Shown here: positions 4,320-60,405 of the stretch, in pieces | Numbering within the stretch: the stretch's first letter is position 1 | Layout of the letters: each line of letters starts with the position of its first letter | Assembly: GCA_024679065.1 (NCBI GenBank) | Contig: JAGIQG010000013.1 | Coordinates: 56,482,001 to 56,546,000, forward strand | DNA length: 64,000 nt | Reading direction: 5' to 3' | From: Sphyrna mokarran | Taxonomy: Eukaryota | Translations under genes and position numbers: made by a program | The notes under the pieces: generated by a model | Database searches by the model: none | What the model saw: the letters and a program-made list of their open reading frames with translations, nothing else | Told to the model about the DNA's origin: nothing

Positions 4320-4632
4320 GAATCTCTACAATGCAGAAGGAGGTCATTCGGCCATTGCGTCAACTCTGACAACAATCCCACCCCTATCCCTATAATTCTA
4401 CTAACCCTCTAACCTACACATCCCAGGACATTAAGCAGCAATTTAGCATGCCCAATCAATCTAATCTGCACATCTTTGGACTGTGGGAGCTAACCAGAGC
4501 ACCCAGAGGAAACCCATGCAGACACAGGGAGAACATGCAAACTCCATACAGACAGTGACCCAAGCTGGGAATTGAACCCAGGTCACTGGAGCTGTGAGAT
4601 AGGAGTGCTATCACTGTGCCACCATGCCACCC
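4320..4632 (-). mobile_element. HE1-type V-SINE
   Basis: Reverse complement of the same head, V core and tail. Confidence 0.88.
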
Positions 4633-5780: not shown

Positions 5781-6897
5781 AATCAGATAATTGGAATCAA
5801 GTGATTTTGAATTAAGGCAGCACAGATGTATAATATACAGGAAGTGAATTGAAAAGAGACTAAATTGGATAGAACAGGACAAAAGCAGAATGTTACTGCG
5901 GTAACACACATTCTTTTAAAGGCGCATGTCCATCAGAAAAAATGCATTAATTTTTTTCAATGTTATTCTCCAAGTGTGGCTTTGGGTTTGGCACTGTGGA
6001 GACCACCTCATCCTTTGCTTTACGTAATTGCTAAATAGAGATTTCAAACGGCTCTTTCCAGTGCAAGCAGGAAGACTGAGGTCACGGGAAGTGAAAATTA
6101 GTTGTTTGTTTCAGTAGAAAAAAGCAACACACCCAAAATGTGAATGTTCTGCTTGTGTTGAATGCAGCCTTACATTTTGCAACAGAATTAAGCTTTCTGT
6201 CTCAAGCTGTGCAATCTGCAGTGTGGGGAAAAAGGGGATTATATAGATCTATTCCTCAATTGGAGGGGATCGAAGTGTATTCCGGGAAAAATAGGGAAAT
6301 CGTTGTTTCACTCTTTCTAATAGATTTTCATTTTTAGTAAGCACATTGTCCTATAGCACATTCTATAGTTTATAAAATATACTACTGGAGACTTGCAAAC
6401 ATCACATTAGTATCTTTGTTGCAACATTATAGGATTTCTAGTTGTTATTTCACCAAAAACTTTAACAGAATCAAAACTGTTCACTCTGAGATAAACTACA
6501 TTAAATTGTCCATGTGTAAAAACAGGCTGAGGGATGTTAAACACAAAATTTGTCAAGAGTTTAGCCTTGTGACTTGTTTCTAGTCATCAAACAGAGATGT
6601 CTAATTGGCACTGTCTGTTCCTGAATTAAAAGGGAGGGTTTACATTGGTTGAACTCAATATTATTTGAAAAATATTTCCTTGAAATCTCCAGTTATAATT
6701 TCAGCATTGAATATTTGAAGGAAACAGTTTCCTAATTACTAAAGTGGTTCCATGACAAGGCTTTTGTTTAGGATTCATTCTTCACAGCAGCATTATAATT
6801 GCTGTTTTGTTGAAACTGATTTTGGGACTGAATTTTCATCCTTGAGGCAGGTAATGAGAATTGAGATTAGACAACAGAACTACCAGTCAAGCAATGA

Positions 6898-7018
6898 TTT
6901 CCCTGGGGCTCAGCTGTTTCAACGGTCTTTTGAATTTCTGGGCTCTAAGTCAAGAAAGCATAATGAGATTTGGCCCAGAAATTCATTAGACTGTTGAAAC
7001 AGCTGAGCTGCAGGGAAA
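6898..7018. repeat. Isolated 46-bp inverted repeat (41/46 matches) with 29-nt loop
   Basis: 6898-6943 tttccctggggctcagctgtttcaacggtcttttgaatttctgggc pairs with 6973-7018 gcccagaaattcattagactgttgaaacagctgagctgcagggaaa. Confidence 0.9.
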
Positions 7019-7651
7019 CATAGCTTTAAAGCTCTCTCTCTCTCTCTACACATTGTTTATTATTCATTAAGTTAAAGAGGATTCAAGTGTTTGTAGTTTC
7101 TGCTAATGATGCATTAAAGGGTCTGGATGACTAATACTTTTATTAGTTTGTGGAAAAGTTTATTTTTACAGAAAGTAGGAAATTAGTTATGAATGACTGC
7201 TTTTAACCATTTAAAAAAATATTTCTTTGTCAAGGTAGTATTTATTGTTTATTTACAGTATAGAATGAATGAATGGATATGGAGGTGCCATAGCTTGAAT
7301 GGGGGGCATAAGAGGTCATGGGGATAGTAAATGGCAAAGATAGGGATGGGGGAAGCATAGGGAATGGGTGGGGGGTATAATTTAGCATGGGAGACATGAA
7401 GAGCATCTTTTGAATTTAATTTCTAAAAATTTCCCTCCTGTACAGAATGATTTATGACACCTCTGAGATGTCATGAATCATGAATCTTTGAAAAACTGTC
7501 TCAACTTGTGGAAATTTTGTGGGGACTAGTACATAGTCTCAATGAAGCTGGCCAGGTCAGCTTCATGACCTGGAGTGCAGGGCCCTGATTCATAACTTGA
7601 ACCAACGCACCTTTAAAAGGTTTAAATGAAAATTAGACATATGGAAATGGA

Positions 7652-9589: not shown

Positions 9590-10060
9590 GAAAGTGATTG
9601 TCTAGTCGGTCAACACACTTGCCTCCAAATTACTACATTCTGTGTTCATTGCCGGGGCTTCGGCATGTAAATCAAGCTGACATTGCAATGCAGTATGGAT
9701 GGAGCAGTGCATTGCCTACATTACAGCAGTGCTATCTTCTCGATGTGATGGTAAACTGAGGTCTCATCTGTAGAACAAAATAACCCATGGCTCTATTTTG
9801 AAGAAGCAAAGTTATATTGGCCATGACACTAAGTTATCTTAGTGTCATGGCCAATATTTATTCCTCAAATGTCCAACACTACAAACAGATTATCTGGTGT
9901 CTATCATGGCTGCTTGTGGGATTTTGCTGAATCCAAATTGGCTTCCGATTTGCCTACATTACAGTAGGGATTACACTTCAAAAAAACACTTCATTGCTTG
10001 TAAAGTGCTTTGAGACTTCCAATGATTTTGAGAGATGTTATATGAATACAAGTCCTTCTA
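9590..10060 (+). mobile_element. Deu-domain SINE, degenerate, containing a perfect 20-bp hairpin
   Basis: gctgacattgcaatgcagtatggatggagcagtgcattg core and typical 3' end; hairpin at 9814-9857. Confidence 0.7.
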
Positions 10061-24315: not shown

Positions 24316-25455
24316 TAGAACATAGAACATAGAACATAGAACATTACAGCACAGAACAGGCCCTTCGGCCTTCGATGTTGTGCCGACCAAAATAAAAAGC
24401 AATGCCCCTCCAAACTAAACCATTCCCTTCTCTTCCATATACTTATCAATTAACCTCTTAAACGCCACCAAACTTGGCGCATCTACAACAGCTGCAGGCA
24501 GGGCATTCCACTCCCTAATCACTCTTTGAGTAAAGAACCTACCTCTGATATCCGTCCTATAACTCATACCCCTTAATTTAAAGCTGTGTCCCCTCGTGCT
24601 AGCTTTCTCCATCCTAGGAAAAAGGCTATCACTGTCCACCCTATCTGAACCTCTAATCATCTTATATGCTTCAATAAGATCCCCTCTTAGCCGCCTCCTT
24701 TCTAACGAAAACAACCTCAAATCCTTCAACCTCTCTTCATAGGACCTGCCCTCCATACCAGGCAACATCCTGGTAAACCTCCTCTGTACCCTCTCCAATG
24801 CCTCCACATCTTTCTTATAATGTGGCGACCAGAACTGCACACAATACTCCAAGTGCGGCCGCACTAGAGTTTTGTACAGTTGCAACATGATGCTGCGGCT
24901 CCTAAATTCAATCCCCCTACCAATAAAAGCTAAGACTCCATATGCCTTCTTAACAACTTTATCCACTTGACTGCCTACTTTCAGGGATCTATTGACACAT
25001 ACACCAAGATCCTTCTGTTCCTCAACACTATTAAGAGCCCTACCATTAGCCCTATACTCTACACATTTATTGTTCCTGCCAAAGTGCATTACCTCACACT
25101 TTTCCACATTAAACTCCATTTGCCACCTCTCGGCCCAGCTCTGCAACTTGTCCAAGTCTCTCTGCAAACTATAACACCCCTCTTCACTATCTACCACTCC
25201 ACCGACTTTAGTGTCATCTGCAAATTTACTGATCCATCCCTCAATACCCTCATCCAGATCATTTATAAAAATTACAAACAGCAGGGGCCCCAAAACAGAC
25301 CCCTGAGGCACACCACTCGTCACCGAACTCCACGATGAATATCTCCCATCAACCACCACCCTCTGTCTTCTATCTGCCAGCCAATTCCTAATCCAATTAG
25401 CTAAATCACCCTCTATTCCACACATCTGCATTTTCTGTAGAAGTCTTCCATGGGC
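24316..25455 (-). mobile_element. Young 5'-truncated CR1/HER1 LINE (open RT C-terminal half)
   Basis: Uninterrupted 338-aa ORF with GVPQGSVLGP and ISKFADDTK; (TTCTATG)n tail; stem-loop ggccgaagggcc. Confidence 0.97.
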
Positions 25456-28055
25456 AAACTTCTCATGATGACTTCAATGAGAGCCAAAGTAAAAATGGTG
25501 ATGATGTTGAGCAACTGGAGACATTGATGTTCAGTTGTTTGGTGTTTGATTGTGTGTGACTGTTGACTGTGAGCTGAAAGTCGACTTTGTGGATGGGGTG
25601 ACAGAGAAACTGAGAGCAAATGGGAAGCACGAGAGGGCAAATATTTTCAAAGCATTGAATAAAGCTCCTATTCACACATAGAACCTGGATCCTCTCCGCA
25701 TATCTCTCAGGCACAAAACACAATGGGCCTTTACTGGACTTTATGGCCTCACTTGTCCCGAAACCATAAAATCCCACCCAATGTCAATGGACCTTCCCAC
25801 TGTCTGTCCCTCATCTGTTCTGATATCCATGGTGGGCAGGATGGTAAAATTCCAATCAATACCTGATGACAAGAATGGGTTGGATTTATACGTGCGAGGT
25901 AAGAAATGAAAGGATTGTTTAATATTAACTTCACAAGGGCATATGCAAAACCCCTGTCAATCTTGGCCTTTAAAAAAATTTAAAAATCAAATAAATTACA
26001 CAGAATGCATCCCTTCTGACTTTGCTCAGAGAGTTCATAGAAAACTTGCAGGGGCTGATTGGGGAAGTCTCCATCAGCTTCAGTGTGTTTGTGAGAATTG
26101 GTACACCCACCACTGAACTGTACAAAGCAGCACTTGCACTTACCTGCCACATGCTGCTAATAAGGTGTTCTCCCACCAATCCTACAATCACTGACAGATA
26201 CAGCGCTGGAGGGTGCCATTGGGAATAATCCTGGTGTTATCAGAAAATAAAGCAGCAACCATAACAAACAGAAGGCTTCATTCCACAATGTTTCTAAAAA
26301 AATAAACCCCACCTGGGTGCATATGTTCTTCTGGATTTAATTTAAACAAGATGAATAGATGTGAGTAAAGAGGTGAGTAAGTCTGGTAGACAACAATCAA
26401 TGGCCATTTCATCTGTTATTCCCATAACTCGCTTTCATCGCCAAAATAAGTAGAAAAAAATTTAAAAATGTTTTTTATTAAACTCTTCAAAGGCCTGTCT
26501 TGAGAAAATTGTGTAGGGCTACATGAAGTTAGTGTGGTGATTGGTTAGACAAAGGAAGTGCAAATTTCAATGTGTCAGCACAGTTAGTATTCATTGTTTA
26601 AAACAAATCTATATATAGTGGTGTCCAGTAACAATGCACTGATGCTATAAATAATTCTGATGTGTTTTATAAAAACATTGCTTTTTTGATGGCATTAATT
26701 TTTTAAATACACAATAAAACTCATTTGAAGGAAAGGTGTAATGCATGGATGCTTCAATGTGCCACACTGAGTATGATTTAGCACTCTGATGATGTGAAAT
26801 AATTTAGCAACATTTTCAAATCTAGGTTTCTTATATGCTGTGAAGACAGGCAAAGAGACCTGTAGTAATCTGAAATGCACGGCTAACACTTATTCTATGA
26901 TCTTCTAGAGGAAAGACTCAAAATCAAGTAATGATTTGATAATCATCATGAAAAATGCATCTCTGCACTTTTTGAGAAACTGTTGATGTCCCCTTAGAAC
27001 ATTTTCTAGTTCACCTACACTTACATGAAGGTGACTCTCCTTTTCTAAACTAACCTCAAGTCCCGTTCTCACTTTAAACCAAACATCAGCCTATTTCCCT
27101 TCTCCTGACATTAGCCTTTGATGATTGTGCATCTGCTTTTTTTCAGACATGTCTTAAGTTCTATTGCAGACTGCCACATGTTTTAAATTTTTTGCAACAT
27201 TGTAAAATATATTTGAGAAAAGATGTGCATGTGTCAAAAATATGCAACCATTTACTAATTTATTATTGCTTCTTTTGGTTCTTTCAGGTCACAACTTTAT
27301 ATAACTTGCGTATTCATGTTGCCAGCTTGGTGATGACTGTCAATAAGAAGGCAATTCTACAGTATAACCAGGGTGAAGTTGCTTATTGGTGGTGTTAATG
27401 TCAAAGATTCTCATTCAAGAGTCTACCTACAGTTCTTGAGGTTGTCAGGTTTTGTGGCTGTAACAGGATCTGAAGAATTATCATTTTATTACACTTTTTT
27501 TTGTATTCGACTTACAATCTTTCTGTTTATAATGAACATAGCTCTTATTACAATATCACAGATTTCCTTTGGGTAGGTGACATTTCAGAGTTTCGGAGGT
27601 CCCTAGAAGTGTATTAATATTTTCAGGCCCATGCTGAAAATCGAAACTCTTGGTTTATAGAGACCTGCTATAAAGGTTCACTCTTAATTAATTATGTAGT
27701 ACAATATGCATGGGTAGAAAAAAATGTCATGTAGTACAAAAGCTACTTAACTGAGACAAATCATAATGGCAGTACATCTGACCTATTCTGGCATTTGTTA
27801 GAGTTGCACATTCCTAAGATCTGTTACACACAGGCTGCAAATTTATATTTTTAATAAATTACAGGAGTATACTTGACAAAACAAATTTCCTTGGGGATAA
27901 CTGGGGTTAAAGACCATGGGATATTCAGGAACAATTCATTAGTATGTTAGGGACAAAAATGCTGTCACACTACTCCTGCCCTACACCAGGAGCAAAAATC
28001 CTGAAGACATTCAGTTTCAGCATGGTTATCCATCCATTCACTGAGATAGATACAA

Positions 28056-29565
28056 ACAGTAAGAAGTCTCACAACACCAGGTTAAAGTCCAACAGGTTTA
28101 TTTGGTAGCACAAGCCACTAGCTTTTGAAGCACTGCCCCTTCATCAGGTTAGTGAGATTTCAGTTCACAAACAGGGCATATAAAGACACAAACTCAATTT
28201 ACAAGATAATGGTTGGAACGCAAGTCTTATCAAGTTTTAAAGGTACAGACACTGTGAGTGGAGAGAGGGTTAAGCACAGGCTAAAGAAATGTGTATTATC
28301 TCCAGCCAGGACCGTTAGTGAGATTTTGCAAGTCTAGGCAAATCGTGGGGGGTTACAGATAGTGTGACATGAATCCAAGATCCCGGTTGAGACCGTCCTC
28401 ATGTGTGTGGAACTTGGCTATCAGTCTCTGCTCAGGACTCTGCGTTGTCTCTGCAACAGACACCTCCAGATGCTGAAAGATGCCCTCATAAGAACAGGAT
28501 ATGGTGCTCAACTCATCAATTGACAGTTCTGATGCACCACAGCAAAAAACCAAACCGACCTCCTCAGAAGACAAACACAGGACACGGTGAAGTAACCTTC
28601 ATTGGCCAGAACTTTCCCAGAGTGGAGAAGCTATGACATCTTCTTCAGACTTTCAACATTTCATTGATGAAGACGATCATCTCGCCCAAGGCCATCCCCA
28701 CACCCCCACTTCTTCCCTTCAAACAACCATACAACCTCAAACAGATTATTGTCCGCAGCAAACTACCCAGCCTTCAGGAGAACAGTGACTACAATACCAC
28801 ACAACCCTGCCACAGCAACCTCGGCAAACGTGCTGGATCATTGACACAGATGCCATTATCTCATGTGAGAACACCATCCATCAGATACACAGTACATACA
28901 CTTGCAAATCGTACAATGCTGTCTACCTGATACACTGCAGGAAAGGATGTCACAAGGCATGGTACATTGGGGAGACTATTCAAACGCTATGTCAATGGAT
29001 GAATGAACACCACTTGATAATCACCAGGTAAGAGTGTTCTCCTCCTGTTGGGGAATACTTCAGCAGTCACGGGCATTCGGCCTCTGATCTTCAGATAAGT
29101 GTTCTCCAAGGCAGGCTTCATGACACACGACTGCGTAGAGTCACTGAGCAAGACTGATAGCCAAGTTCCATACACGAGGATGGCTTCAACCGGCATTTTG
29201 GGTTCAATTCACACTATCTGTAACCCCCATGACTTGCCTGGGCTTGCAAAATCTCACTAACTGTCCTGACTGGAGACAATACACATTTCTTTAACCTGTG
29301 CTTAACCCTCTCTCCACTCACATTGTCCATACCTTTAAGACTTGATTACCTGTAAAGACTTGCATTCCAACCATTATTTTGTAAATTGAGTTTGTGTCTT
29401 TATATGCTCTGTTTGTGAACTGAAATTCCACTCATCTGATGGAGGGGCAGTGCTCCAAATGTTAGTGGCTTGTGCTACCAAATAAACCTGTTGGACTTTA
29501 ACCTGGTGTTGTGAGACTTCTTATTGTATTACCCCCAGTCCAACACACGTCCTATTATGGCTGCC
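28056..29565. mobile_element. Penelope-like retroelement: truncated, inverted terminal copy, GIY-YIG remnant, 10-bp TSD
   Basis: 28056-~28446 is the reverse complement of ~29130-29527. Decayed CKSYNAVYLIHCRKGCHKAWYIGET (GIY-YIG) at ~28900-28980. ATAGATACAA duplicated at 28046-28055 and 29566-29575. Confidence 0.9.
28118..28154 (-). ncRNA. Degenerate minimal type-I hammerhead ribozyme in Penelope terminus
   Basis: Minus strand cactaacCTGATGAaggggcagtgcttc(a)AAAgcTAgtg; the G of GAAA is lost, consistent with CpG decay. Second copy on plus at ~29428-29467 (CTGATGG..ctccAAAt). Confidence 0.7.
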
Positions 29566-31520
29566 ATAGATACAACACCAGATAAGGAATCGTAATAGCT
29601 GCATCAGGGGTGGATTTTTATCTCATCATTTTAAAATTATCCAGAAAGCCAAAAGACAGCCTCCGGAGTTGAGAAGACCCACAATTTATTTTTGATACCA
29701 TAAACACCCTGCAAGTATAAGAAGTCTTTCAAAGAGCTTCCTGTACGATATTTTTAAACGGAACATCACAAGGTAGTGGTTTGAAGGAAGAGTGTTGATG
29801 TTGCCAATGAGAGCAACAAATTATTTATATAACCAAACATATTCATGAAACTTTGGATCTAATTGGATTGAAAGGAATTATACAAAGCTGATTTTTGTTT
29901 CAGCAAATTTACCTGGGGGACAAAAAGATTACAATTGGCGAATTAGGCAGAGAAACAAATAGTTTTAAGCACTATCTCGTTGCACAAAGGACACCAAAAA
30001 AACACATGGAAATGAAGCAGATTTTTTTGTCAGAAATCCAATTTCAGCCCATTGTTTTTCCAAAGCAAGTGTCAAAGGTTAACAATCATTCCATAGAAAA
30101 CATGGAATTTTTAAGGAAACATACTATAGGTTGCTACCCAGCATTAGATACAAACTTAGCAAATACATCATTTTTTTTATAGAGAGAAAGAGCTGCAAAG
30201 GGCAAACAGGAAAAAATACTTTCAACACTTCAACTCAGTCTACCCCATTGGGTGCAAGAGTAAAAGAGGCATTGTCTTATTCAGAGTCATAAATCGGTCA
30301 AAGGTATATATATGAATAGTTTTGAGGACTTCAGTTTTAATAGTCACAAGAACCTTGCTGCTGCCTCTGCATTTATTCTCCTAGGCTATCTATGTTGTTT
30401 TTTTTCCCAGATATATATTTGATTAGAGTAATCTAGAAGTGCACAAGTTAGTGGCAGTGCCTCGTCCAGACTTGAATTCCTTATATATGACATCAAAGAG
30501 ATACCATTTGATTGTCCATTACTATATAATATATCAATAGTCGAACTGCACAAGCATTGCTCATGTTTAAACTGGATCTCAGGTATCCAGAGTTGTGGAA
30601 GGAAACCATAAAAATGCAAGTCATTATCATTATTTCTTTTCCTCTTTTTAAAAAAATATATTTCTCAACATTCTGTGCGCTGCTGCTTGTATTTAAAACT
30701 GAACTGCAGTTAACTGTTTGTTGTTAGACCAAGGTTACAGGATCATGCATTAGTCAATGGAAAATATTTGACCCATTTGGTAACCGAGATCAATTGCTTC
30801 ATTTTTTTCTGTACTCCCAAAAAGGACTGGTACAGATTTACATTACCAGGCCCTGATTTTGACAGGGGTGAACAAACTACACAGTTGCCTCTGTAGCTTC
30901 AGGCAGGAAAGTTCCCTAAGAGACAGTTCCGTAATGGAATCAGAATTCCTGTTACACTCATGCACAAGCACACACATACATCCACATGCACGCATTCATA
31001 TTCACATCTATCTGTGTACTAAAAGAGACCTGCTACAACACAAGGCAGAGTATCCACATGGAAGGCTAAATGTCTGGTTTATTCGAGGAAATTGGAAATA
31101 TCATTGTGTCTTTGTCACATGTCATAAGCAAATCTAGATGGCCAACTTCTTTTCCTCACTAGACTGGGCGTTAAAGTCACAAGTTGGATGACAGGTTTGG
31201 TGAAGGATATAAAACACCATTTATTGTTTCAGAAAAGCAACAAATAAACAATTTGCATGTACATACAAAGACAAAAAATAATCATCTGGGACAAATAAAC
31301 TCTTAATATACGCTTCCTCCACATGGCAAAGGAAAATTGAATTTCTAGTTCTTAAATTATTTTACTGCCAAGTACAAATGAGACATAATTTTGAGTCCAC
31401 ACCTGCTCACAGTATTGTAACACATTGTGGTGATAATAATATAATGTGTATGGGATCTGTTTGTCTGTCAGATTGATCAGACTGATAGAAGAAGCGGTAT
31501 CACCAGGAAATAAAGATCTT

Positions 31521-33943
31521 GATTGGAATAGCTATAGCTCTAGCTCGTTAGAGGGGTCAGTTTTCGTACAGAGTGTGCAGGAAGGTTTTTTGACTCAGTA
31601 TGTAGAGAGGCCAACTAGAGGTGAGGCTACATTGGATTTGGTGCTGGGCAATGAGACAGACCAGGTGTTAGGCTTGGAAGTTAGTGAACATTTTGGTGAT
31701 AGTGACCACAATTCGGTTACGTTCACCTTAGTGATGGATAAGGATAGGCATGAAGCTGGGGGCAGTAGTTATAGCTGGGGGAAGAGTAATTATGAGGCCA
31801 TAAGGAGAGAATTAGGGTGCATAGTTTGGACTAGGAAACTACAGGGACTGGGAACATCTGAAATGTGGAGCTTATTCAAGGAGCAGCTACTGCGAGTCCT
31901 TGATAAGTATGTTCCTGTCAGGCAAGGAGGAAATGGTCGAGTAAGGGAACCATGGTGTACTAAAAAAGTTAATTCGCTGGTTAAAAGGAAAAAGGAGGCT
32001 TATGTCAGGATGAGGCTTGAGGGCTCAGTTAGTGCAATGGATAGCTATAGATTAGCCAGGAGGGAGCTAAAGAGTGAGTTGAGGAGAGCTAAGAGGAGAC
32101 ACGAGAAGACTTTGGCTGATAGGATTAAGGAGAATCCTAAAGCTTTCTTTAGATATGTTAAGAATAGAAGATTGGTTAGGGCAAGATTAGGGCCAGTCAT
32201 AGACAGCAGTGGGAAGTTGTGCGTGGAGACTGAAGAGATTGGTGAGGCACTGAATAAATATTTCTCTTCGGTATTCACGCAGAGTGCTGGAAATGTAGCT
32301 ATGGCGAACACTGAGGTACAGGGTTGCAAATTGGGAAGTATTGTAGTAGATAGGGAGGATGTGTTAGAAATTCTCGAGGGTTTGAAGTTGGATAAGTCCC
32401 CTGGGCCGGACGGGATTTACCCTAGGATTCTCGGGGAGGCAAGAGAGGAGATTGCAGAGCCTCTGGCTCTGATCTTCAGGTCCTCGTTGGTTACGGGTGT
32501 GGTTACGGAGGACTGGAGGATGGCGAATGTGGTCCCATTGTTTAAGAAGGGGAAGAGAGACCTTCCTGGGAATTATAGGCCAGTGAGTCTTACTTCTGTG
32601 GTGGGCAAGGTATTGGAGAGAATTATTAGGGATATGATTTATAGTTATTTAGAGAGAAATGAATTGATTGGGGATAGTCAGCATGGTTTCATGAAGGGTA
32701 GGTCATGCCTTACTAACCTCATTGAGTTTTTTGAGAAAGTGACCAGAGAGGTGGATGGGGTAAGGCGGTTGATGTAGTATATATGGACTTTAGTAAGGCG
32801 TTTGATAAGGTGGCCCATGGAAGACTTCTGCAGAAAACGCAGATGTATGGGATAGAGGGTGATTTAGCTAATTGGGTTAGGAATTGGCTAGCAGATAGAG
32901 ACAGAGGGTGGTGGTTGATGGGAGATATTCATCTTGGAGTTCGGTGACAAGTGGTGTACCTCAGGGGTCTGTTTTGGGGCCCCTGCTGGTTGTAATTTTT
33001 ATAAATGATCTGGATGAGGGTATTGAAGGATGGATTAGTAAATTTGCAGATGACACTAAAGTCGGTGGGGTGGTAGATAGTGAAGAGGGGTGTTATAGTT
33101 TGCAGAGAGACTTGGACAAGTTGCAGAGCTGGGCTGAGAGGTGGCAAATGGAGTTTAATGTGGAAAAGTGTGAGGTAATGCACTTTGGCAGGAACAATAA
33201 ATGTGTAGAGTATAGGGCTAATGGTAGGGCTCTTAATAGTGTCGAGGAACAGAAGGATCTTGGTGTATGTGTCAATAGATCCCTGAAAGTAGGCAGTCAA
33301 GTGGATAAAGTTGTTAAGAAGGCATATGGAGTCTTAGCTTTTATTGGTAGGGGGATTGAATTTAGGAGCCGCCGCATCATGTTGCAACTGTACAAAACTC
33401 TAGTGCGGCCGCACTTGGAGTATTGTGTGCAGTTCTGGTCCCACATTATAAGAAAGATGTGGAGGCATTGGAGAGGGTACAGAGGAGGTTTACCAGGATG
33501 TTGCCTGGTATGGAGGGCAGGTCCTATGAAGAGAGGTCGAAGGATTTGAGGTTGTTTTCGTTAGAAAGGAGGCGGCTAAGAGGGGATCTTATTGAAGCAT
33601 ATAAGATGATTAGAGGTTTAGATAGGGTGGACAGTGATAGCCTTTTTCCTAGGATGGAGAAAGCTAGCACGAGGGGACACAGCTTTAAATTAAGGGGTAT
33701 GAGTTATAGGACGGATATCAGAGGTAGGTGCTTTACTCAAAGAGTGATTAGGGAGTGGAATGCCCTGCCTGCAGCTGTGTAGATGCGCCAAGTTTGGTGG
33801 CGTTTAAGAGGTTAATTGATAAGTATATGGAAGAGAAGGGAATGGTTTAGTTTGGAGGGGCATTGCTTTTTATTTTGGTCGGCACAACATCGAAGGCCGA
33901 AGGGCCTGTTCTGTGCTGTAATGTTCTATGTTCTATGTTCTAT
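31521..33943 (+). mobile_element. Young 5'-truncated CR1/HER1 LINE (end of APE domain, RT, tail)
   Basis: LDLVLGNE, GDSDHN, KSPGPDG, NYRPVSLTS, FADD across ORFs broken only by 1-bp deletions; (TTCTATG)n tail; possible ATCTT TSD (31516-31520, 33942-33946). Confidence 0.97.
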
Positions 33944-46340: not shown

Positions 46341-47279
46341 CTGATAAAACTGATGCCATAGATGATGAGTAGAGCAATGTATGCCAGGTAAAGAAGAAGT
46401 ATCCAGGCTATGACAGTTTATATACCCTGACTGGCAAATATAAGAAAAATATAAAAGGCATAACTGTATGAAACACCACAAAGTATTGTAGCGTTTCATA
46501 CAAAGTATTGTGGTGTTTCATACAATAGTGTAACCTAAAAGCTTTTGTGAATAACTTTCAGGGAGAACTCACAGCTGTGGATTTTCTATCAAAAACTAGA
46601 TTACAAATGTTTTATGGATTGTTCCAGATACGAGTTTAGAGTATGGCAGACAATAAACACTATTTTTAGAATAAAACAAAACTTCACAACGGCACAGCTT
46701 TCAAAATATTCCTCCTCCTTGTTACAGGAATTGTCACAGTATATGCATGTTTTGTAAAGCATTATAAAGGTTGTCGGAAGAAACCCAAAGATGTTTCCAG
46801 GATAACAGAAGCAAAATCACAAATGGACCCCAAGCTCTTCAAAACAGCAATTTATAATTTCCATGACTTGATGACTTGGTTTTATTTCTTGTAGTTTTCT
46901 GTAATAATGTTGATAATACAGCATAATACAGGCACATATGTGAGAGCGAATTTCCCTTCTTGACTAATTCTGATACCGTTTTAATAAACGGACCTTTGAA
47001 GATCCACTCCGAACAATGGTTATTATCAGTTATTTTGGCGAGTTTCTGCCCTTTTTAAGGTAAGTGAGCAATGATAGCAGAATTAAGTGTGGAGCACTTT
47101 TCGCCAACAATGCATGTTAGTCCCAACCACAGAAGTGCCCCTGGACTGCCACAGCTTTTATTCCTTAATTAACCATCATGATTGCCACTCAGTTTAGTGC
47201 CTGCTTATGCCACATGAGAGCTATTTTCATTCCATTCTAATGGAAACTTGGTTGGAGACAAACCAAATTCATTTCATCA

Positions 47280-50876: not shown

Positions 50877-50979
50877 CATCTTGTCCAGAGTTCAGTAAGT
50901 AGTCGCCCAGGTCGCAACCAAACGCTGTGTCCTTCGCACCTTTTCGTTTGCCTTTCTGTTTTGCTGCCTTGTTCTTCAT
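50877..50979 (-). CDS. ARHGAP31: Coding exon 1 of ARHGAP31/CdGAP-like Rho GTPase-activating protein
   Basis: ATG at 50979 gives MKNKAAKQKGKRKGAKDTAFGCDLGDYLLNSGQD plus 1 nt, then donor G|GTAAAG. Closely resembles the ARHGAP31 N-terminus as I recall it (MKNKGAKQKLKRKGAASAFGCDLTEYLESSGQD); less like ARHGAP30. Phase 1 matches exon 2. Confidence 0.92.
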
Positions 50980-53280: not shown

Positions 53281-54570
53281 CTTTACTGGTGTAAATTAGA
53301 AAACTTTTCTTTTATGATTAGCTTATTTTTTTTCCCTTTCTCTGCTGTGGATCAAATCTCCAGACCCCTACCAAAGCAGACATCCTTCATGTACAAACCT
53401 GGATGGTGAGAATCAGGCTAACAAAACCTGCAACCATTTCAGTCTCACCCAGTAAGCACACACCTGTGCACTAGTGTACGGAAAGCGATCGGGAGCAGAG
53501 TTACTTATACTGAGTGTTTTCTTGCAGGACGAAGGTAGGAGTTAATATCAAATATCAAATCTTTAAATCACCCTTACAGACGCACTGTTTACTTTTTATT
53601 AACTTGCTTACTTTGATTAGTAGCCAAATATGTACAGTTTTGGATTTCACCAGACAGAGTTCCTTAAAGGACCCTTTTATTTTTGTGGTGTCATTTCACA
53701 GGTTCTAAAAAGGAACAGTTCTATTAAATTAATATTGGATATTACGAGGAAATAAAATGAAAATAGGATGAGTTGAATTTAGGAATCATTCTCTGAAGCT
53801 TTGTAAACTTGGAGCTCCTTCAAACATATGATGGCATTTGTAAATATGCAATCCTGATAGGTGTGAGTTGAGCTTCACAAGATATAATCAGGAGAGATTG
53901 ACGTGATACCCAAGTATTATCATCGCCTGTACAAACTGTTCATTTCTTCAGCCAAGCTCTATACTATTGTGTTTCAGTGAGTTGGTGACGTGTGCCATGA
54001 TGTCAGTCAGTGCTTGGCACTGTTTTATCTGGACTCCTGACAAGTAAGGCAGAGACGATTGTGTGGCTATTTTGGGAAGGCCATGTTCACTCCCAGCTTT
54101 TTCATTGTTTGGATAATTTCCTTTGTAATACTGTACTTTTACCAGCTCTCGAAATAATTATACTCACCACTTCGTTTTAACACCAAATCATGAAGGTTAT
54201 GGCATAACTTTTATTGTGCAATCTGTGGTGTTTAGTGATGTAATTTGCTTGAAAGCAAGGCCAGTGATGCACTGACCCGGTGATCGGAAACAAAATGTGA
54301 GAGAAAGATGTTTAAGTGGGAAAGAAGCAAAACATGAGGAACTACAGACTCAACCTTTCATAGCATGGACTGGTGTAAACTGCACCTGGATACCTATCTA
54401 TAACTTGGAAGTACTAAACATGAAGGAAGAACTGTCCTGATTATTATGTGTTGCAGCAACACAGATATAAGACTCTTTGAGTGATTTTGCAATAAAAACA
54501 GATCAGAACAATCTTTCCTCCACATGGACTGTGTTTAATCCTTTGGTTACTTAATTTAAGATATATTTAA

Positions 54571-56111
54571 TTTAAGAGCAACACAGCACGGGAAACAGGC
54601 CCTTCGGCCCAACGAGCCCGCGCCGCCGTCATAACTATATAGTAGCAATTCCATTATCCTATTATAGATTTAGGTTATTCCTAATATGGAAGACTCTCAC
54701 TATAGGGACAATTTGTTTCCCAATTAGCCTAAGAGCGAATTTTTGGGTTGTGGGAGGAAACCGGAGCGCCCGGAGAAAACCCACGCAACCACGGGGAGAA
54801 CGCGCAAACTCCCGCAGACACCGGCCCAATTCCAAGTGTCTGCACAGCCACATCGATAGTCTCTGAGCTGTCATGGTGCCCTTCAGATGGTCCACATAAA
54901 GCACTCATTTACGACATGAGGTACCAGGCAACCCATGAATCAACATCCAAGAGCTGTCCTCGCACCACCTGCCGAATGCATGCTCCTTGTTGGTCAAGTA
55001 TGGACCGAATTACCTGTGGAAAAAAAGCCATAGTTAAACAGTCCTACTATATCCCTCTATCTGCATACCGCTCATGTGGCTGTCCAAGAGACCCTTAAAC
55101 AGCCCCAGCGTGCCTGCTCCCACCACCTTACTCGGCAGTGCATTCCACACCCCCACTACCCTTTGTGTGAAAAACTGCCCTCTAATATTCGTCTTATACA
55201 TAGCCCCCCTCACCCTATGGCCATGACCCCTCGTCCTATCCATTTCTGAAGGTGGAAAAAGTTTACCTCCATTTACTCTATCTATACCCCTTATAATCTT
55301 ATACACCTCTATGAGATCCCCTCTAAGCCGACGTTTTTCAAGGGAAAACAACCCCAGTCTATTTAATCGTTCCTCATAAGATAATTTTATAAGGGGTTAG
55401 ATAGAGTAAATGGAGGTAAACTTTTTCCACCTTCAGAAATGGATAGGACGAGGGGTCATGGCCTTAGGGTGAAGGGGGCTATGTATAAGACGAATATTAG
55501 AGGGCAGTTTTTCACACAAAGGGTAGTGGGGGTGTGGAATGCACTGCCGAGTAAGGTGGTGGGAGCAGGCACGCTAGGGCTGTTTAAGGGTCTCTTGGAC
55601 AGCCACATGAGCGGTATGCAGATAGAGGGATATAGTAGGACTGTTTAACTATGGCTTTTTTTCCACAGGAAATTCGGTCCATACTTGACCAACAAGGAGC
55701 ATGCATTCGGCAGGTGGTGCGAGGACAGCTCTTGGATGTTGATTCATGGGTTGCCTGGTACTTCATGTCGTAAATGAGTGCTTTATGTGGACCATCTGAA
55801 GGGCACCATGACAGCTCAGAGACTATCGCTGTAGCTGTGCAGACACTTGGAATTGGGCCGGTGTCTGCGGGAGTTTGCGCGTTCTCCCCGTGGTTGCGTG
55901 GGTTTTCTCCGGGCACTCCGGTTTCCTCCCACAACCCAAAAATTCGCTCTTAGGCTGATTGGGAAACAAATTGTCCCTATAGTGAGAGTCTTCCATATTA
56001 GGAATAACCTAAATCTATAATAGGATAATGGAATTGCTACTATATAGTTATGACGGCGGCGCGGGCTCGTTGGGCCGAAGGGCCTGTTTCCCGTGCTGTG
56101 TTGCTCTTAAA
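54571..56111. repeat. ~725-bp inverted repeat (54571-55296 and 55387-56111) with 90-bp spacer
   Basis: Arms are reverse complements with about 10 differences by manual count; spacer 55297-55381 is a direct repeat of 56118-56202. Confidence 0.97.
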
Positions 56112-58761
56112 AAAAAATCTTATACACCTCTATTAGATCCCCTCTAAGCCGACGTCTTTCAAGGGAAAACAACCCCAGTCTATTTAATCGTTCCTCATAA
56201 GACAGTCCTTCCATACCAGGCAGCATCCTGGTAAACCTCCTCTGCACTCTCTCCAAGGACTCCACATCCTTCCGATAGTACGGCGACCAGAACTGGACGC
56301 AGTATTCCAAGTGAGGCATAACCAACGTTCTATACAACTGCAACATCAAACTCCTACTCTTGTATTCTATACCCTTTTCTATGAAAGCTAACATACTATA
56401 CGTCTTCTTTATCACCTTCTCCACCTGTGAGGACACCTTCAGAGACTTGTGAACCTGCACCCCCAAGTCTCTCTGCGTCTCTATGCTCCGTATAGTTTTA
56501 CCTTTTATCCTATAACTCTCTTCTACATTTTTCCGGCCAAAATGCATCACCTCGCATTTATCCGGATTAAATTCCATTTGCCATCTATCTGCCCAGTCTA
56601 CCAACCTATCTATGTCCTGTTGTATTGCCTGGCACTGCTCCTCTGTACCCGCCAATCCAAGCATCTTAGTGTCATCAGCAAATTTGCTGATCTCACCACC
56701 TACCCCAACTTCCAAGTCGTTTATGTAGACCACAAATAGAAGAGGACCTAGTACTGAGCCTTGTGGCACTCCACTAGTGACAGGCTTCCAGCCGGAAAAA
56801 GAGCCTTCCACTACTACCCTCTGTCTCCTCCTCCCGAGCCAGTTCTCAACCCATCTACATACCCGACCCTGTATCCCATGCGCCTTCACCTTCTCTATCA
56901 GTCTACCATGAGGAACCTTGTCAAACGCCTTACTGAAATCCATGTAGACGACATCAACAGCATGTCCTTCATCAACTGTTTTTGTCACTTCTTCAAAAAA
57001 TTCCACTAGATTTGTAAGACAAGACTTCCCCTTGATGAAGCCATGCTGCGTATCCCTGATCAGATCGCAGTGCTCCAGATGCTCATACATCCTGTCCCTG
57101 AGAATCCTCTCCATTAGCTTACCTATAACTGAAGTCAAGCTCACCGGCCTATAGTTCCCTGGGTTATCCCTCTGAACTTTTTTAAACAACGGTACTACGT
57201 TTGCTATCCTCCAGTCCTCTGGGACCTCACCTGTGTCCAAGGAAGAGACAAAGATTTGCGTCAGAGGCCCAGCCAAGTCTTCCCTCAACTCCCTTAGCAG
57301 CCTGGGGTACATGCCATCAGGCCCCGGAGCTTTATATGTCTTTAAGCTGCCTAACAGCCCCAACACCTCTTTCCTCGTAATCTTTATTTCCCTCAATGGA
57401 TCCTCAACTTTGTCAACATCAGCAACAGACATCTGGCCAGTCTCCTGCGTGAATACCGACGCAAAGTATTCATTCAGGATCTCCCCCATTCCCTCAGGCT
57501 CTAAGCATAGATCCCCTCCTCTGTCCCTGAGGGGTCCAATCTTGCCTCTAACCATCCTTTTGCTCCTTACATAGGTGTAAAATGCCTTAGGATTTACCTT
57601 AATCCTACCTGCCAGAGCCACCTCGTGGCCCCTTTTTGCCTTTCTAACACCCCTTTTAAGATCCCTTCTACACTCTCTATAAGCTTCCAGCGCTGTCTCA
57701 GTCCCCAGTTGCCTAGATCTAATGTAAGCCTCTTGCTTCTTCCTGATCAAGTCCTCAATATCCCTGGTAAGCCACGGTTCTCTAATCCTACCTTTCCCAT
57801 CCTTCCTCCTTGCCGGCACGTATCTTTCCTGCAGAGAGTTTCGTTTTCCCTTGAAAGACTCCCACATGTACCTCGTCGACCTGCCCTCGAAAAGCTTATC
57901 CCAGTCGGTATCTTTAAGATCTTGCCTAATCTGGCTGTATCTAGCCCTCCCCCAGTTAAATACCTTCCCTTTTGGGCCTGTCTCGTCCTTTTCCATTAAT
58001 ATCCTAAAGCAGACAGAGTTGTGATCACTATTTGACACCTGCTCTCCTACCTCGGCGTCAACCACCTGGCCTGGCTCATTCCCCAGAACCAAATCCAGTA
58101 TAGCCCCCTCTCTAGTCGGGCCATCCACATACTGCTCCAAGGACCCTTCCAAAACACACTGTACAAATTCCTCCCCGTCCACTCCTACAGCTCTGGGCAC
58201 TCTCCAATCTCCTCCAGGAAAATTGAAATCTCCCACTACTACTACCCTATTTTTCCTACACTTATCTAAAATGTCCCTGCATATCCCTCCTTCCACGGCT
58301 CGCGGGCTGTTGGGCGGTCTGTAGTAAACACCCAACAGAGTAACCACTCCCTTCCTATTCCTCAACTCCACCCATAGAGACTCAATTCCTAAATCATCCA
58401 TACCTCCCTCCCTCTGCACTGCTAGGATGTTGTCCTTAACTAATAAAGCCACTCCCCCGCCTCTCCTCACACCAACTCTGTCATGCCTAAAACACTTATA
58501 CCCTGGAATATTCAATTGCCAGTCTTGCCCCTCCTTCAACCACGTCTCGGTCACCGCCACCACTTCTAAACTCCTCGTGAACATTATTGCCTTCAGTTCA
58601 TCTGTTTTGCCAGTCACACTCCTCGCATTAAAACACGTGCACTGAAGACCCTCAGCTCTCGGATATTCCTTTCTACCTTCTGGTGTTACCCTATCATCCC
58701 TCTCTCTCCCACTCCCAGTTCCCTCTCTCTCCCCACCCTCCCTCCCTATTAGTTTAAACAC
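56107..58761 (-). CDS. LINE ORF2: APE endonuclease plus reverse transcriptase, broken near the C-terminus by the rearrangement
   Basis: 884 codons without a stop: CFNARS, VTETW, GDFN, SDHN, GVPQGSVLGP, FADD. The missing C-terminus (IIRGIDRV..EGYSRTV*) is present in both inverted arms. Confidence 0.95.
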   Translation of the reverse strand: MFKLIGREGGEREGTGSGRERDDRVTPEGRKEYPRAEGLQCTCFNARSVTGKTDELKAIMFTRSLEVVAVTETWLKEGQDWQLNIPGYKCFRHDRVGVRRGGGVALLVKDNILAVQREGGMDDLGIESLWVELRNRKGVVTLLGVYYRPPNSPRAVEGGICRDILDKCRKNRVVVVGDFNFPGGDWRVPRAVGVDGEEFVQCVLEGSLEQYVDGPTREGAILDLVLGNEPGQVVDAEVGEQVSNSDHNSVCFRILMEKDETGPKGKVFNWGRARYSQIRQDLKDTDWDKLFEGRSTRYMWESFKGKRNSLQERYVPARRKDGKGRIREPWLTRDIEDLIRKKQEAYIRSRQLGTETALEAYRECRRDLKRGVRKAKRGHEVALAGRIKVNPKAFYTYVRSKRMVRGKIGPLRDRGGDLCLEPEGMGEILNEYFASVFTQETGQMSVADVDKVEDPLREIKITRKEVLGLLGSLKTYKAPGPDGMYPRLLRELREDLAGPLTQIFVSSLDTGEVPEDWRIANVVPLFKKVQRDNPGNYRPVSLTSVIGKLMERILRDRMYEHLEHCDLIRDTQHGFIKGKSCLTNLVEFFEEVTKTVDEGHAVDVVYMDFSKAFDKVPHGRLIEKVKAHGIQGRVCRWVENWLGRRRQRVVVEGSFSGWKPVTSGVPQGSVLGPLLFVVYINDLEVGVGGEISKFADDTKMLGLAGTEEQCQAIQQDIDRLVDWADRWQMEFNPDKCEVMHFGRKNVEESYRIKGKTIRSIETQRDLGVQVHKSLKVSSQVEKVIKKTYSMLAFIEKGIEYKSRSLMLQLYRTLVMPHLEYCVQFWSPYYRKDVESLERVQRRFTRMLPGMEGLSYEERLNRLGLFSLERRRLRGDLIEVYKIFF

Positions 58762-59518
58762 TTCTGAAACCCTCCAGCTAACCTCCCAGCTAAAATATGT
58801 GTTCCCCTCCCAGTCAACTGCTCCCTATCCCTCTTGAATAGATGACCCTCCCTCCTGAAGACCTCCCAATGACCAATGAATATGAAGCCTTCTGCCCTAC
58901 ACCAATCCCTCATCCATGCATTTAGTTGTAGTGTCTCATTTGTTTTTACCCAATCGGTCCCGGGCACAGGCCAGAGAACGCCACCCTGGAGGCCCTACCT
59001 TTCAGTTGAGCCCCCAACTCCCTAAAATGCCTACGTATGTCCCCCCTGTGCTTTCTTCCTACATCTTTCTGTCCTACGTGAACTATTACATTTGCCTTAG
59101 ACCCTTCTCCCTTCAAAATTCCCTCTACCCTCTCTGAAACATCCTGGACTCCTGCTCCAGGGAGGCAGACTACCATCCTGGAGTCTCTCTTTTGCCCACA
59201 GAAATGCCTATCGATTCCTATAACCATCCCATCCCCCACCAATATCTCACTTCCTACTTTCCTGCTGGTCTCTGTGGCATTCTGTTCCCCCTCACCTGCC
59301 CTCTCCATCACAGCTTTTACCCCTCCCTTGGTTTTCTGGGAATCCTCCTTAGAGATGGCCTTTGTGCCTTGATTTTTATTCTTGTTCCTCGTAACTGTAA
59401 CCAGCCTGTCCCTACTACTAGATCCTGGGGTCCCCGCAGGACTACCTTCCCTATTCATTGTAACCTCATTTTCCCTCACTAGACACATGTCCTCCAAGCG
59501 CAGCTCCAGCTGCCTCAA
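58749..59518 (-). pseudogene. LINE ORF1, 5'-truncated, coiled coil plus SGNH/GDSL esterase fold, one frameshift near 58960
   Basis: LRQLELRLEDM coil, ILVGDG, VCLPGAGVQDV, VIVHVGQKD, LNAWMRDWCRAEGFIFIGHW and FKRDREQL match the layout of CR1 ORF1 esterases. Confidence 0.85.
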
Positions 59519-60405
59519 CCTAGCGTTACAGGTTATATTGAACAGTAATTAGGTAAATATCTACAAAAATCTCTCAGGTTCATGATTTTTGTTATCTATA
59601 CTTCTAAAAACAATAGGAAAGAAATAAGTAATAGATTCTAACCAATAATTCTCAATACAACAAATCTAGATGTTGGTAATTTTCATTCATTCTGTTGCCA
59701 CCTCCAGACTCAATCTCTGGAATTCTATTGCTTTGCCCGCCACGGAATCGGAACAGGCAAGGGGCGGACAAAAGAAATGTCAGTTGACCTTGGGTGCAGA
59801 TTCCCAGTCTTGCTCAAGTGAGACTGTAAAATACTGCGCAATAACTCCAATTAAAGTAAAGTACAGTGAATGCTGGAACTCTGAAATAAAAACAGCTCAT
59901 GCTGGATAAACTCAGCAAGGGTGGCAGTATCTGCAGAGAGAAACAGAGTTAAAGGGCAGCATTTTTTAAAAATAAAATGGCAAAATGCCAGGTTCTGACT
60001 GAAAACTGATGTGTTTTTCTCCAGAAACACAGTTCATGTTTTCTCACCACAGCTTCTGACGCATGGTCAAAAAAATCTGGGAACGTGCTTTATGCCGTCA
60101 CTCTGGTGTGGACACTGCCGAATGCCAGGAGGCAGTGCCCAGCCTCAGCCCTCAAACCCCAGGGCCTCCAGCACCTCCACCTTACCAGTGTGGTCATGTT
60201 GATTGGTTGTTGTTTTTGAAACCAGTGATGAAATGTGCTGGAATAACATTATGCTGCTGGGAGGGAGCATTCCGCAGAGCTGGACAATACGATGCTGAGC
60301 CTTTTAATTATATTTAAGTTCATTCAAATCAGGTTCATACCCTTTCTGAGTGTGAATCTGATTACGTCGCCAGTGAGGGAACGGAAAGATCTCAAACCGA
60401 GCCAA

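Follow-up and report, generated by a model that had tools for sequence, protein, structure and literature searches.

An inverted duplication of the 3' end in a truncated CR1-clade element of Sphyrna mokarran and its tentative explanation by cDNA fold-back

The locus and its CR1 element

We analysed a window of 64,000 nucleotides from Sphyrna mokarran (GenBank assembly GCA_024679065.1, contig JAGIQG010000013.1, positions 56,482,001 to 56,546,000), in which a long interspersed nuclear element (LINE) of the CR1 clade, truncated at its 5' end, lies on the minus strand. All coordinates are those of the whole 64-kb window, and strands are relative to its forward strand. As listed in Table 1, comparison of the window with itself revealed that the last 725 bases of this CR1 copy occur twice, one copy being inverted, and that the layout in element orientation is a-b-c'-b-c, where c' is the inverted copy of the 3' part c. 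This is the geometry proposed in a preliminary description of the same DNA, all coordinates of which proved correct. The CR1 copy is dead, and what it bears is a genuine scar of its insertion, unusual in form and well preserved, without sign of function.

Table 1. Features of the CR1 copy and its surroundings. TSD, target-site duplication; ORF, open reading frame; UTR, untranslated region; SINE, short interspersed nuclear element.
Feature	Position	Strand	Remarks
5'-truncated LINE, layout a-b-c'-b-c	54551-59524	-	window self-comparison
Candidate TSD, tail side, GTTAC	54546-54550		sequence inspection
Element 3' tail	54551-54577	-	11-nt AT-rich unit twice, 5 nt between; holds ATCTTA
3' terminal stem-loop, directly upstream of tail	54580-54630	-	copy also in inverted arm
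Arm c, upright	54571-55296	-	final 87 ORF2 codons and 3' UTR
b1, 85-bp palindrome spacer	55297-55381	-	edges form 6-bp inverted repeat TCTTAT/ATAAGA
Junction 1 filler, 5 nt	55382-55386		without significant template
Arm c', inverted copy	55387-56111	+	reaches 3 nt into tail; 1-nt deletion near junction 1
SINE-body-like segment in LINE 3' UTR	55853-55963	+	mirror copy in upright arm
Junction 2 A9 run	56109-56117	+	3 A of tail start, 4 extra, 2 assignable to b/c boundary
b2, second copy of b	56118-56202	-	continuous with a
ORF2 (endonuclease and reverse transcriptase)	56107-58824	-	905 open codons, severed at junction 2
ORF1 remnant, 5'-truncated	58749-59524	-	single frameshift near 58960
Candidate TSD, 5' side, GTTAC	59525-59529		sequence inspection
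RhoGAP first coding exon, ARHGAP30-33 type, neighbour outside element	50878-50979	-	weak match; gene name presumed

ORF2 matches PF03372, PF14529 and PF00078, as expected for an APE-type endonuclease and a reverse transcriptase (RT). It contains no stop, and its final 115 codons are intact in b1 and the upright arm. The ORF1 remnant, which is truncated at its 5' end and carries one frameshift, gave a weak OSK/SGNH-type match below the cut-off (E 0.008) and 30% identity to bird proteins (E 3e-8). The 5' limit of the element is marked by a drop in guanine plus cytosine content from 0.6 to 0.28 at position 59524, and since its 5' end is lost, the copy would be without a promoter of its own. The best named relatives are RT proteins of birds, turtle, frog and elasmobranchs (Scyliorhinus 59%, Mobula 48%), which we take to be of CR1 type. 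The upright 3' end has a stem-loop with a predicted folding energy of -28.6 kcal/mol (z -2.6, with 3 of 200 shuffles as good), followed by short repeats instead of poly(A), as is characteristic of the CR1 clade. The 3' stem-loop of CR1/L2 elements has a role in recognition by the RT, and the doubled 11-nt unit of the tail may be the product of slipping and restarting. By its ORF2 domains, relatives, 3' stem-loop and repeat tail the element is, as far as sequence can tell, a CR1-clade LINE.

The long 3' UTR (55853-56110, plus strand; mirror copy at 54571-54830, minus strand) aligns with the body and tail of a SINE that is abundant in the window, of which seven copies were aligned, and it is 74% identical to the copy at 4451-4563 over 113 nt (E 5e-13). 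The SINE-body-like segment presumably resembles a V-SINE domain. Either a SINE was acquired by this LINE lineage and now forms its 3' end, or a UTR of this kind gave rise to the SINE body; where the widely conserved bodies of SINEs come from is termed unknown in PMC5786205. The element resembles HER1, a CR1 element of cartilaginous fish with the V-SINE HE1 as its partner, in its endonuclease/RT ORF2, stem-loop and repeat tail, and perhaps in an esterase-like ORF1 and a short TSD, going by the table description in PMC3747384; it differs in its long 3' UTR with the SINE-body-like segment. A search of representative proteins returned no relative above 73%. At the DNA level, a 25-nt pattern from the 3' end of the family had 0 exact matches in a genome contig collection, which holds no animal genomes, and none in plasmids, while 164 candidate stretches contained three distant loci (36-64% identity), none with an inverted repeat. 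No match spanned both flanks as an older repeat bridging the insertion site would, Rfam gave a single chance match (E 0.44), and no tRNA genes were found. CR1-type RTs also appeared in short contigs of Carnobacterium and Aeromonas assemblies and of metagenome-assembled genomes of Nitrosocosmicus and Flavobacteriaceae, where they are probably host or environmental contamination.

Arms, junctions and age of the duplication

The arms had been described as about 725 bp with about ten differences and b as 85 bp with two, which agrees with our alignments. The arms differ by nine substitutions in 725 aligned columns, six transitions (one at a CpG) and three transversions, and by one 1-nt indel; the b copies differ by two substitutions in 85 bp, and there is no difference in divergence between arms and b (p 0.32). 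The indel lies outside any homopolymer, the base having been lost from the inverted arm 10 nt from the inner junction. Coding differences were polarised using the two closest proteins, which are 90% and 83% identical. Private states occur on the upright side (H at position 55, which none of 56 relatives has, and a K within b1) as well as in the inverted arm (K58, the frameshifting deletion and a CpG change at 54767). These private changes on both arms, mostly transitions, argue for decay within the genome and not for a chimeric read. A glycine at position 88 is common to both arms and is present in only 1 of 54 relatives, 50 of which have E or D. This points to a close common source, but it would fit a sibling copy equally well and does not imply the same molecule. 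Adenosine-to-inosine editing of a retroposed hairpin RNA was rejected as an origin of the differences: four of the six transitions would be G:U, but two of these polarise to the other arm. The observed/expected ratio of CpG is 0.65 in the arms and 0.40 in part a.

The duplicated parts have changed by 0.68% per branch. For part a we used ORF2 columns with at least 95% conservation over 106 full-length relatives, which were left of 114 candidates once those with lengths outside 880-1065 amino acids had been excluded. The element deviates at 2 of these 132 columns, where 1.98 deviations are expected at the rate of the arms. Of the six closest relatives, one deviates at 4 columns and the others at 0 or 1, and the median of all 106 is 2. 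Raising the threshold to 98% leaves 109 columns, and the element still deviates at 2 of them, while the median of the relatives is 0. Part of the deviation count in a may be background. Relative to equal age, the likelihood of a host part half as old as the arms is 1.29, and those of a host part 1.5 times, twice and three times as old are 0.48, 0.21 and 0.04, respectively. Averaged over later duplication dates the likelihood is 0.33, so that simultaneity is favoured about 3 to 1. These likelihoods take into account the lack of an ORF2 stop and the single ORF1 frameshift; the counts are small, and gene conversion between the arms would lower their apparent age. Since the decay in a matches the age of the arms, the data support a duplication at or soon after insertion, which would make it about as old as the insertion itself.

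The window offers a control for the divergence of the arms in the form of two young copies of another CR1 family, at 24318-25465 (minus strand) and 31440-33943 (plus strand). These are arranged head to head about 6 kb apart, are 97.4% identical over 1161 bp and have 7-nt repeat tails. Between 24345-25455 and 32813-33921, 19 of 1108 columns differ, and this divergence of 1.71% is indistinguishable from the 1.24% of the arms (9/725; Fisher p 0.56). The preliminary description named two independent insertions as an alternative but missed that the divergence of the arms cannot refute them, since independent siblings differ no more than the arms do; arm divergence was accordingly dropped as a means to exclude a sibling insertion. 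Differences at CpG make up 1 of 9 in the arms and 5 of 19 in the control pair, counts too small for interpretation.

On the plus strand, b opens with TCTTAT at 55297 and closes with its reverse complement ATAAGA at 55376, at the positions reported earlier. An inverted microhomology of 6 nt, as present at junction 1, occurs in 0.02% of 400,000 random position pairs within the element, or in 0.28% when slack in the register is allowed. It is thus significant (p 2e-4 to 3e-3), and since it is beyond chance, the pairing of ATAAGA with TCTTAT was part of the event. As had also been described, b is followed by a filler (5 nt) and the inverted arm, which continues 3 nt into the tail and ends in an A-run (nine A in all), after which b appears again, the sequence resuming within 2 nt of the b/c boundary. 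A templated origin of the filler was rejected, as its match to the b/c boundary at 9 of 10 positions is insignificant (reached by 15% of 1024 fillers, and by 50% of the 32 AT-only ones).

Junction 2 can be read in two directions. On the plus strand it comprises the start of the tail, four extra A, and two A able to pair with the UU of the boundary. On the minus strand it begins with a primer whose end, TAAGAT(T), is the complement of the ATCTTA found in the tail; a T-run comes next, and after it the 3' end with its stem-loop. A 6-mer match of this kind between boundary and tail exists at only 0.4-1.3% of ORF2 positions. The junction is ambiguous, because the minus-strand reading resembles ordinary priming on a CR1 tail, which the preliminary description had missed. 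Every model discussed below accounts well for one of the two junctions but has difficulty with the second. The tail (54551-54577) and junction 1 (55376-55386) both have, on the plus strand, TAAGA and then a short filler starting with TA before copying restarts, a combination that may mark a site of RT release. An endonuclease preference for TAAGA on both strands was rejected, since it is not seen at the ends of the outer TSD.

The pentamer GTTAC flanks the whole unit and is a plausible TSD. The preliminary description had named it as one candidate TSD around the 5-kb unit, and GTTAC is indeed present at both ends, but this is not proof: when 12-nt flank windows were paired at random 20,000 times, 6.8% of the pairs shared a 5-mer. 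TSD lengths of CR1/L2 elements peak at 3-5 bp (PMC4245944).

How the inverted duplication may have arisen

An RT-linked origin during the insertion is likely, and on balance we lean towards a co-insertional origin from a single RNA. Within this, the best single reading, to which we hold tentatively, is that the first-strand complementary DNA (cDNA) snapped back on itself and then returned to the RNA. The weights given to this and the other models are judgements and were not calculated. Reverse transcription from the target would have copied the tail, c and b, a product that is observed and a timing that is supported. The ATAAGA at the 3' end of the cDNA would then have left the RNA, paired with the TCTTAT 85 nt back and gained five filler bases, the polarity of this step being presumed. 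Subsequently, ORF2p or a host polymerase would have copied the new cDNA up to the tail, stopping about 20 nt before the target junction, a geometry that is observed. Removal of the RNA paired over c would have left the RNA 3' end at the fold-back point, so that the return point would equal the fold-back point. The new end would have gained a few A, jumped to the terminal UU and recopied b and 3.3 kb of a, after which a normal 5' joining would leave the 5-bp duplication.

This reading ranks first because several features follow from it: the geometry of the fold-back, a halt close to the target junction, added A residues, one short TSD, and the age of the duplication. The single 5-bp TSD around the whole unit is counted in its favour since it fits the CR1/L2 peak, and the extra bases of junction 2 are A on the very strand that snap-back would synthesise. 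The RT of R2 appends 3-4 bases without a template, for the most part A, and its jumps proceed through +1/+2 pairing (PMC8857657), and snap-back of cDNA onto itself has been described for R2 insertions (PMC11371274, PMC11331408). Self-priming by snap-back, as proposed in the preliminary description, stands as the likeliest single model, with a presumed polarity of synthesis, and an RT-linked origin fits an arm that ends at the tail.

Several points weigh against it. The 6-bp stem is unstable by itself and, with a loop of 73 nt, does not appear when the fold of the strand is predicted, and b must leave the RNA without destruction of the RNA. In the R2 work, overhangs of at least three bases were non-productive for jumping, and base addition took place at template ends, whereas the stop here lies 20 nt before the end (PMC8857657). 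Also, the tail copy of the boundary 6-mer is left as chance, or else the A-run is rewritten tail. A sibling derived from the same source would account just as well for the equal age and for the residue common to both arms, and the R2 snap-backs, as far as the published accounts cited above extend, finish by joining the target and not by returning to RNA.

The foremost rival, which we consider unlikely, is a nested insertion, in which a second, 5'-truncated copy of the same subfamily entered an existing copy in antisense at the b/c boundary. Junction 2 would be its 3' junction, junction 1 its 5' junction, and b a TSD of 85 bp. Junction 2 reads well in this way on the minus strand: a primer TAAGAT(T), a T-run, the tail start and an intact 3' stem-loop, with a primer end whose complementarity to the tail has a chance of 0.4-1.3%. 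About 80% of ZfL2-2 3' junctions show microhomology, about 40% of its 5' junctions have extra bases, and long TSDs do occur with this element, in 1 of 25 new insertions (PMC2666801); moreover, the independent siblings in the window are as alike as the arms. However, the truncation would have to fall within 2 nt of the homologous insertion position, which we estimate at 0.3-0.7% unless some homology-driven cause is at work. A TSD of 85 bp is far outside the peak of 3-5 bp (PMC4245944), less than one tail unit remains in the inverted arm whereas repeated units are retained in the upright arm and at the ends of both control CR1 copies, and no age gap between the host part and the arms was seen.

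We are more doubtful still about re-priming by the second strand in the same event. Here, synthesis stalls at the end of b, and the stalled 3' end primes anew on the tail of that RNA and copies c as far as the trimmed 5' end of the RNA, which abuts the stall point; it then pairs again with the first strand, 85 nt further upstream, and completes synthesis. This covers the tail-complementary primer, the tail start, the exact adjacency, the filler at the arm end and the equal age, and priming on the tail by a second end has been proposed for L1 in twin-priming variants and dual priming (PMC2837659). Against this, the RNA must survive over c, the part copied first, the 6-nt end must invade duplex b, the extra T must arise by slippage on just three A, and no precedent was found in the literature examined.

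Just as doubtful is a switch and return of template during replication or repair after the insertion, of the four-point type 3-2-4-1 (mirror 4-1-3-2), leaving via ATAAGA/TCTTAT and returning via ATCTTA in the tail. Fork regression would bring the switch and return points together, the first ATCTTA along sense c falls in the tail (735 of 746), and fold-back at short inverted repeats is a general reaction of DNA ends (PMC11702581, PMC11724301). It requires, however, that the 11 AT-rich bases preceding ATCTTA became eight A while the arms differ by 1.2%, and the timing favours simultaneity, as calculated above. Furthermore, types with point 4 before point 1 are absent from the 794 human-chimp and 90 human-human events, all much shorter, of PMC5453318. 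Finally, fold-back chimeric reads yield inverted duplications, but such an assembly or library artefact is hardly credible here, with six transitions, three transversions and a non-homopolymer indel between the arms, derived states on both of them, and a sequence that resumes in register and continues into unique flank.

Among known systems, classical twin priming differs in geometry, as the preliminary description had recognised: part a is upright throughout, from 59524 to 56203, and the 3' end (c) is doubled. Twin priming and 5'/3' switching of L1 (bioRxiv 10.1101/2024.08.27.596794) likewise give an internal inversion and a short breakpoint duplication, but with the 5' flank joined to the inverted part, a single 3' end and duplications with a median of 22 bp. 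The same long-read catalogue of 3,598 truncated L1 copies reports twin priming, switching variants (20 and 3 cases), templated insertions and 81 unclassified copies. The twin-priming variants and dual priming of L1 also share an inverted T-run from tail priming inside the TSDs; in those L1 cases the T-run abuts the 5' flank (PMC2837659), whereas in the present copy it comes after 3.4 kb of element in sense orientation and enters the 725-bp arm. Inversions at the 5' end were nearly confined to L1 among three LINEs tested (PMC4245944), and template jumping by L1 ORF2p is supported by PMC7617806.

Closer to the locus are the snap-back 5' junctions of R2 in PRINT (PMC11371274, PMC11331408), in which the 3' end of the cDNA primes complementary synthesis and yields antisense element. 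Here too, an antisense copy of the cDNA starts at a microhomology with the cDNA 3' end, with a 5-nt filler. PRINT, however, is an engineered system in human cells in which joining to the target follows, whereas this is a natural CR1 copy in which 725 nt of antisense are followed not by the 5' flank but by b and a, 3.4 kb in the original direction. The foldback inversion at L1 5' junctions (PMC10191854) and L1-induced foldbacks (PMC11702581) also involve short fold-back synthesis at a retrotransposition intermediate, but these result in duplications of target DNA lying upstream (52-220 bp) or in rearranged chromosomes, without return to RNA. The four-point template switch shares two switches, a reverse-complemented middle fragment and the combination of inverted and direct repeat, all of which are seen here; the order with 4 before 1 was unobserved there and a link to a LINE tail is not made (PMC5453318). 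In searches of full-text literature, with most subscription papers outside their scope, neither a LINE with the a-b-c'-b-c layout and doubled 3' end nor a 725-nt snap-back followed by 3.4 kb of further cDNA in a natural CR1 was found, and within that literature the outcome is an unreported variant among known fold-back and template-switch products.

If the first-strand snap-back is true, a LINE polymerase left its RNA for the cDNA that it had just made and later returned to that RNA, all in the course of a single insertion. This would constrain the timing of RNA removal relative to cDNA synthesis during target-primed reverse transcription. A reaction known from engineered R2 would then also have taken place in the germline, at the insertion of a natural CR1, and the a-b-c'-b-c layout with the return at the fold-back point would be a signature that can be counted in long-read genomes. 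We think it improbable, but CR1-type RTs, for which inversion at the 5' end is reported to be rare, might snap back and resume recurrently, being released after a tail-like UCUUA, copying their own cDNA to the tail and restarting on the trimmed RNA. Such a family would seed the genome with long self-palindromes, and read-through would produce double-stranded RNA directed at the family's 3' end and at the SINE body contained in it, so that the family would curb its own multiplication.

Neighbouring exon and other features of the window

A transcript through the element in either direction would form a long stem, and a 481-nt sample of it has a predicted fold with a z-score of -39. The neighbouring exon on the minus strand, of 34 codons, starts at 50979, at 3572 bp from the tail of the element. 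The distance of 3.6 kb to an ARHGAP31 start codon in the preliminary description was thus accurate, but the gene name is one that we, too, only presume, the exon's sole database match being a weak one to RICS/ARHGAP32 (PDB 3IUG, E 0.067). The exon had no match in Pfam and Atlas, and no further RhoGAP exons were detected by motif scan or in the ORF list.

Elsewhere in the window, inverted terminal repeats of about 390 bp that are 88% identical (28056-28444 and 29134-29527) surround a decayed, coding-like interior, and presumably this pair at 28056-29527 belongs to something resembling a Penelope-like element. Short palindromes are present at 46465-46524 (26-bp arms with an 8-nt spacer), 6889-7026 (139 bp, 76%) and 9814-9857 (44 bp, 95%).

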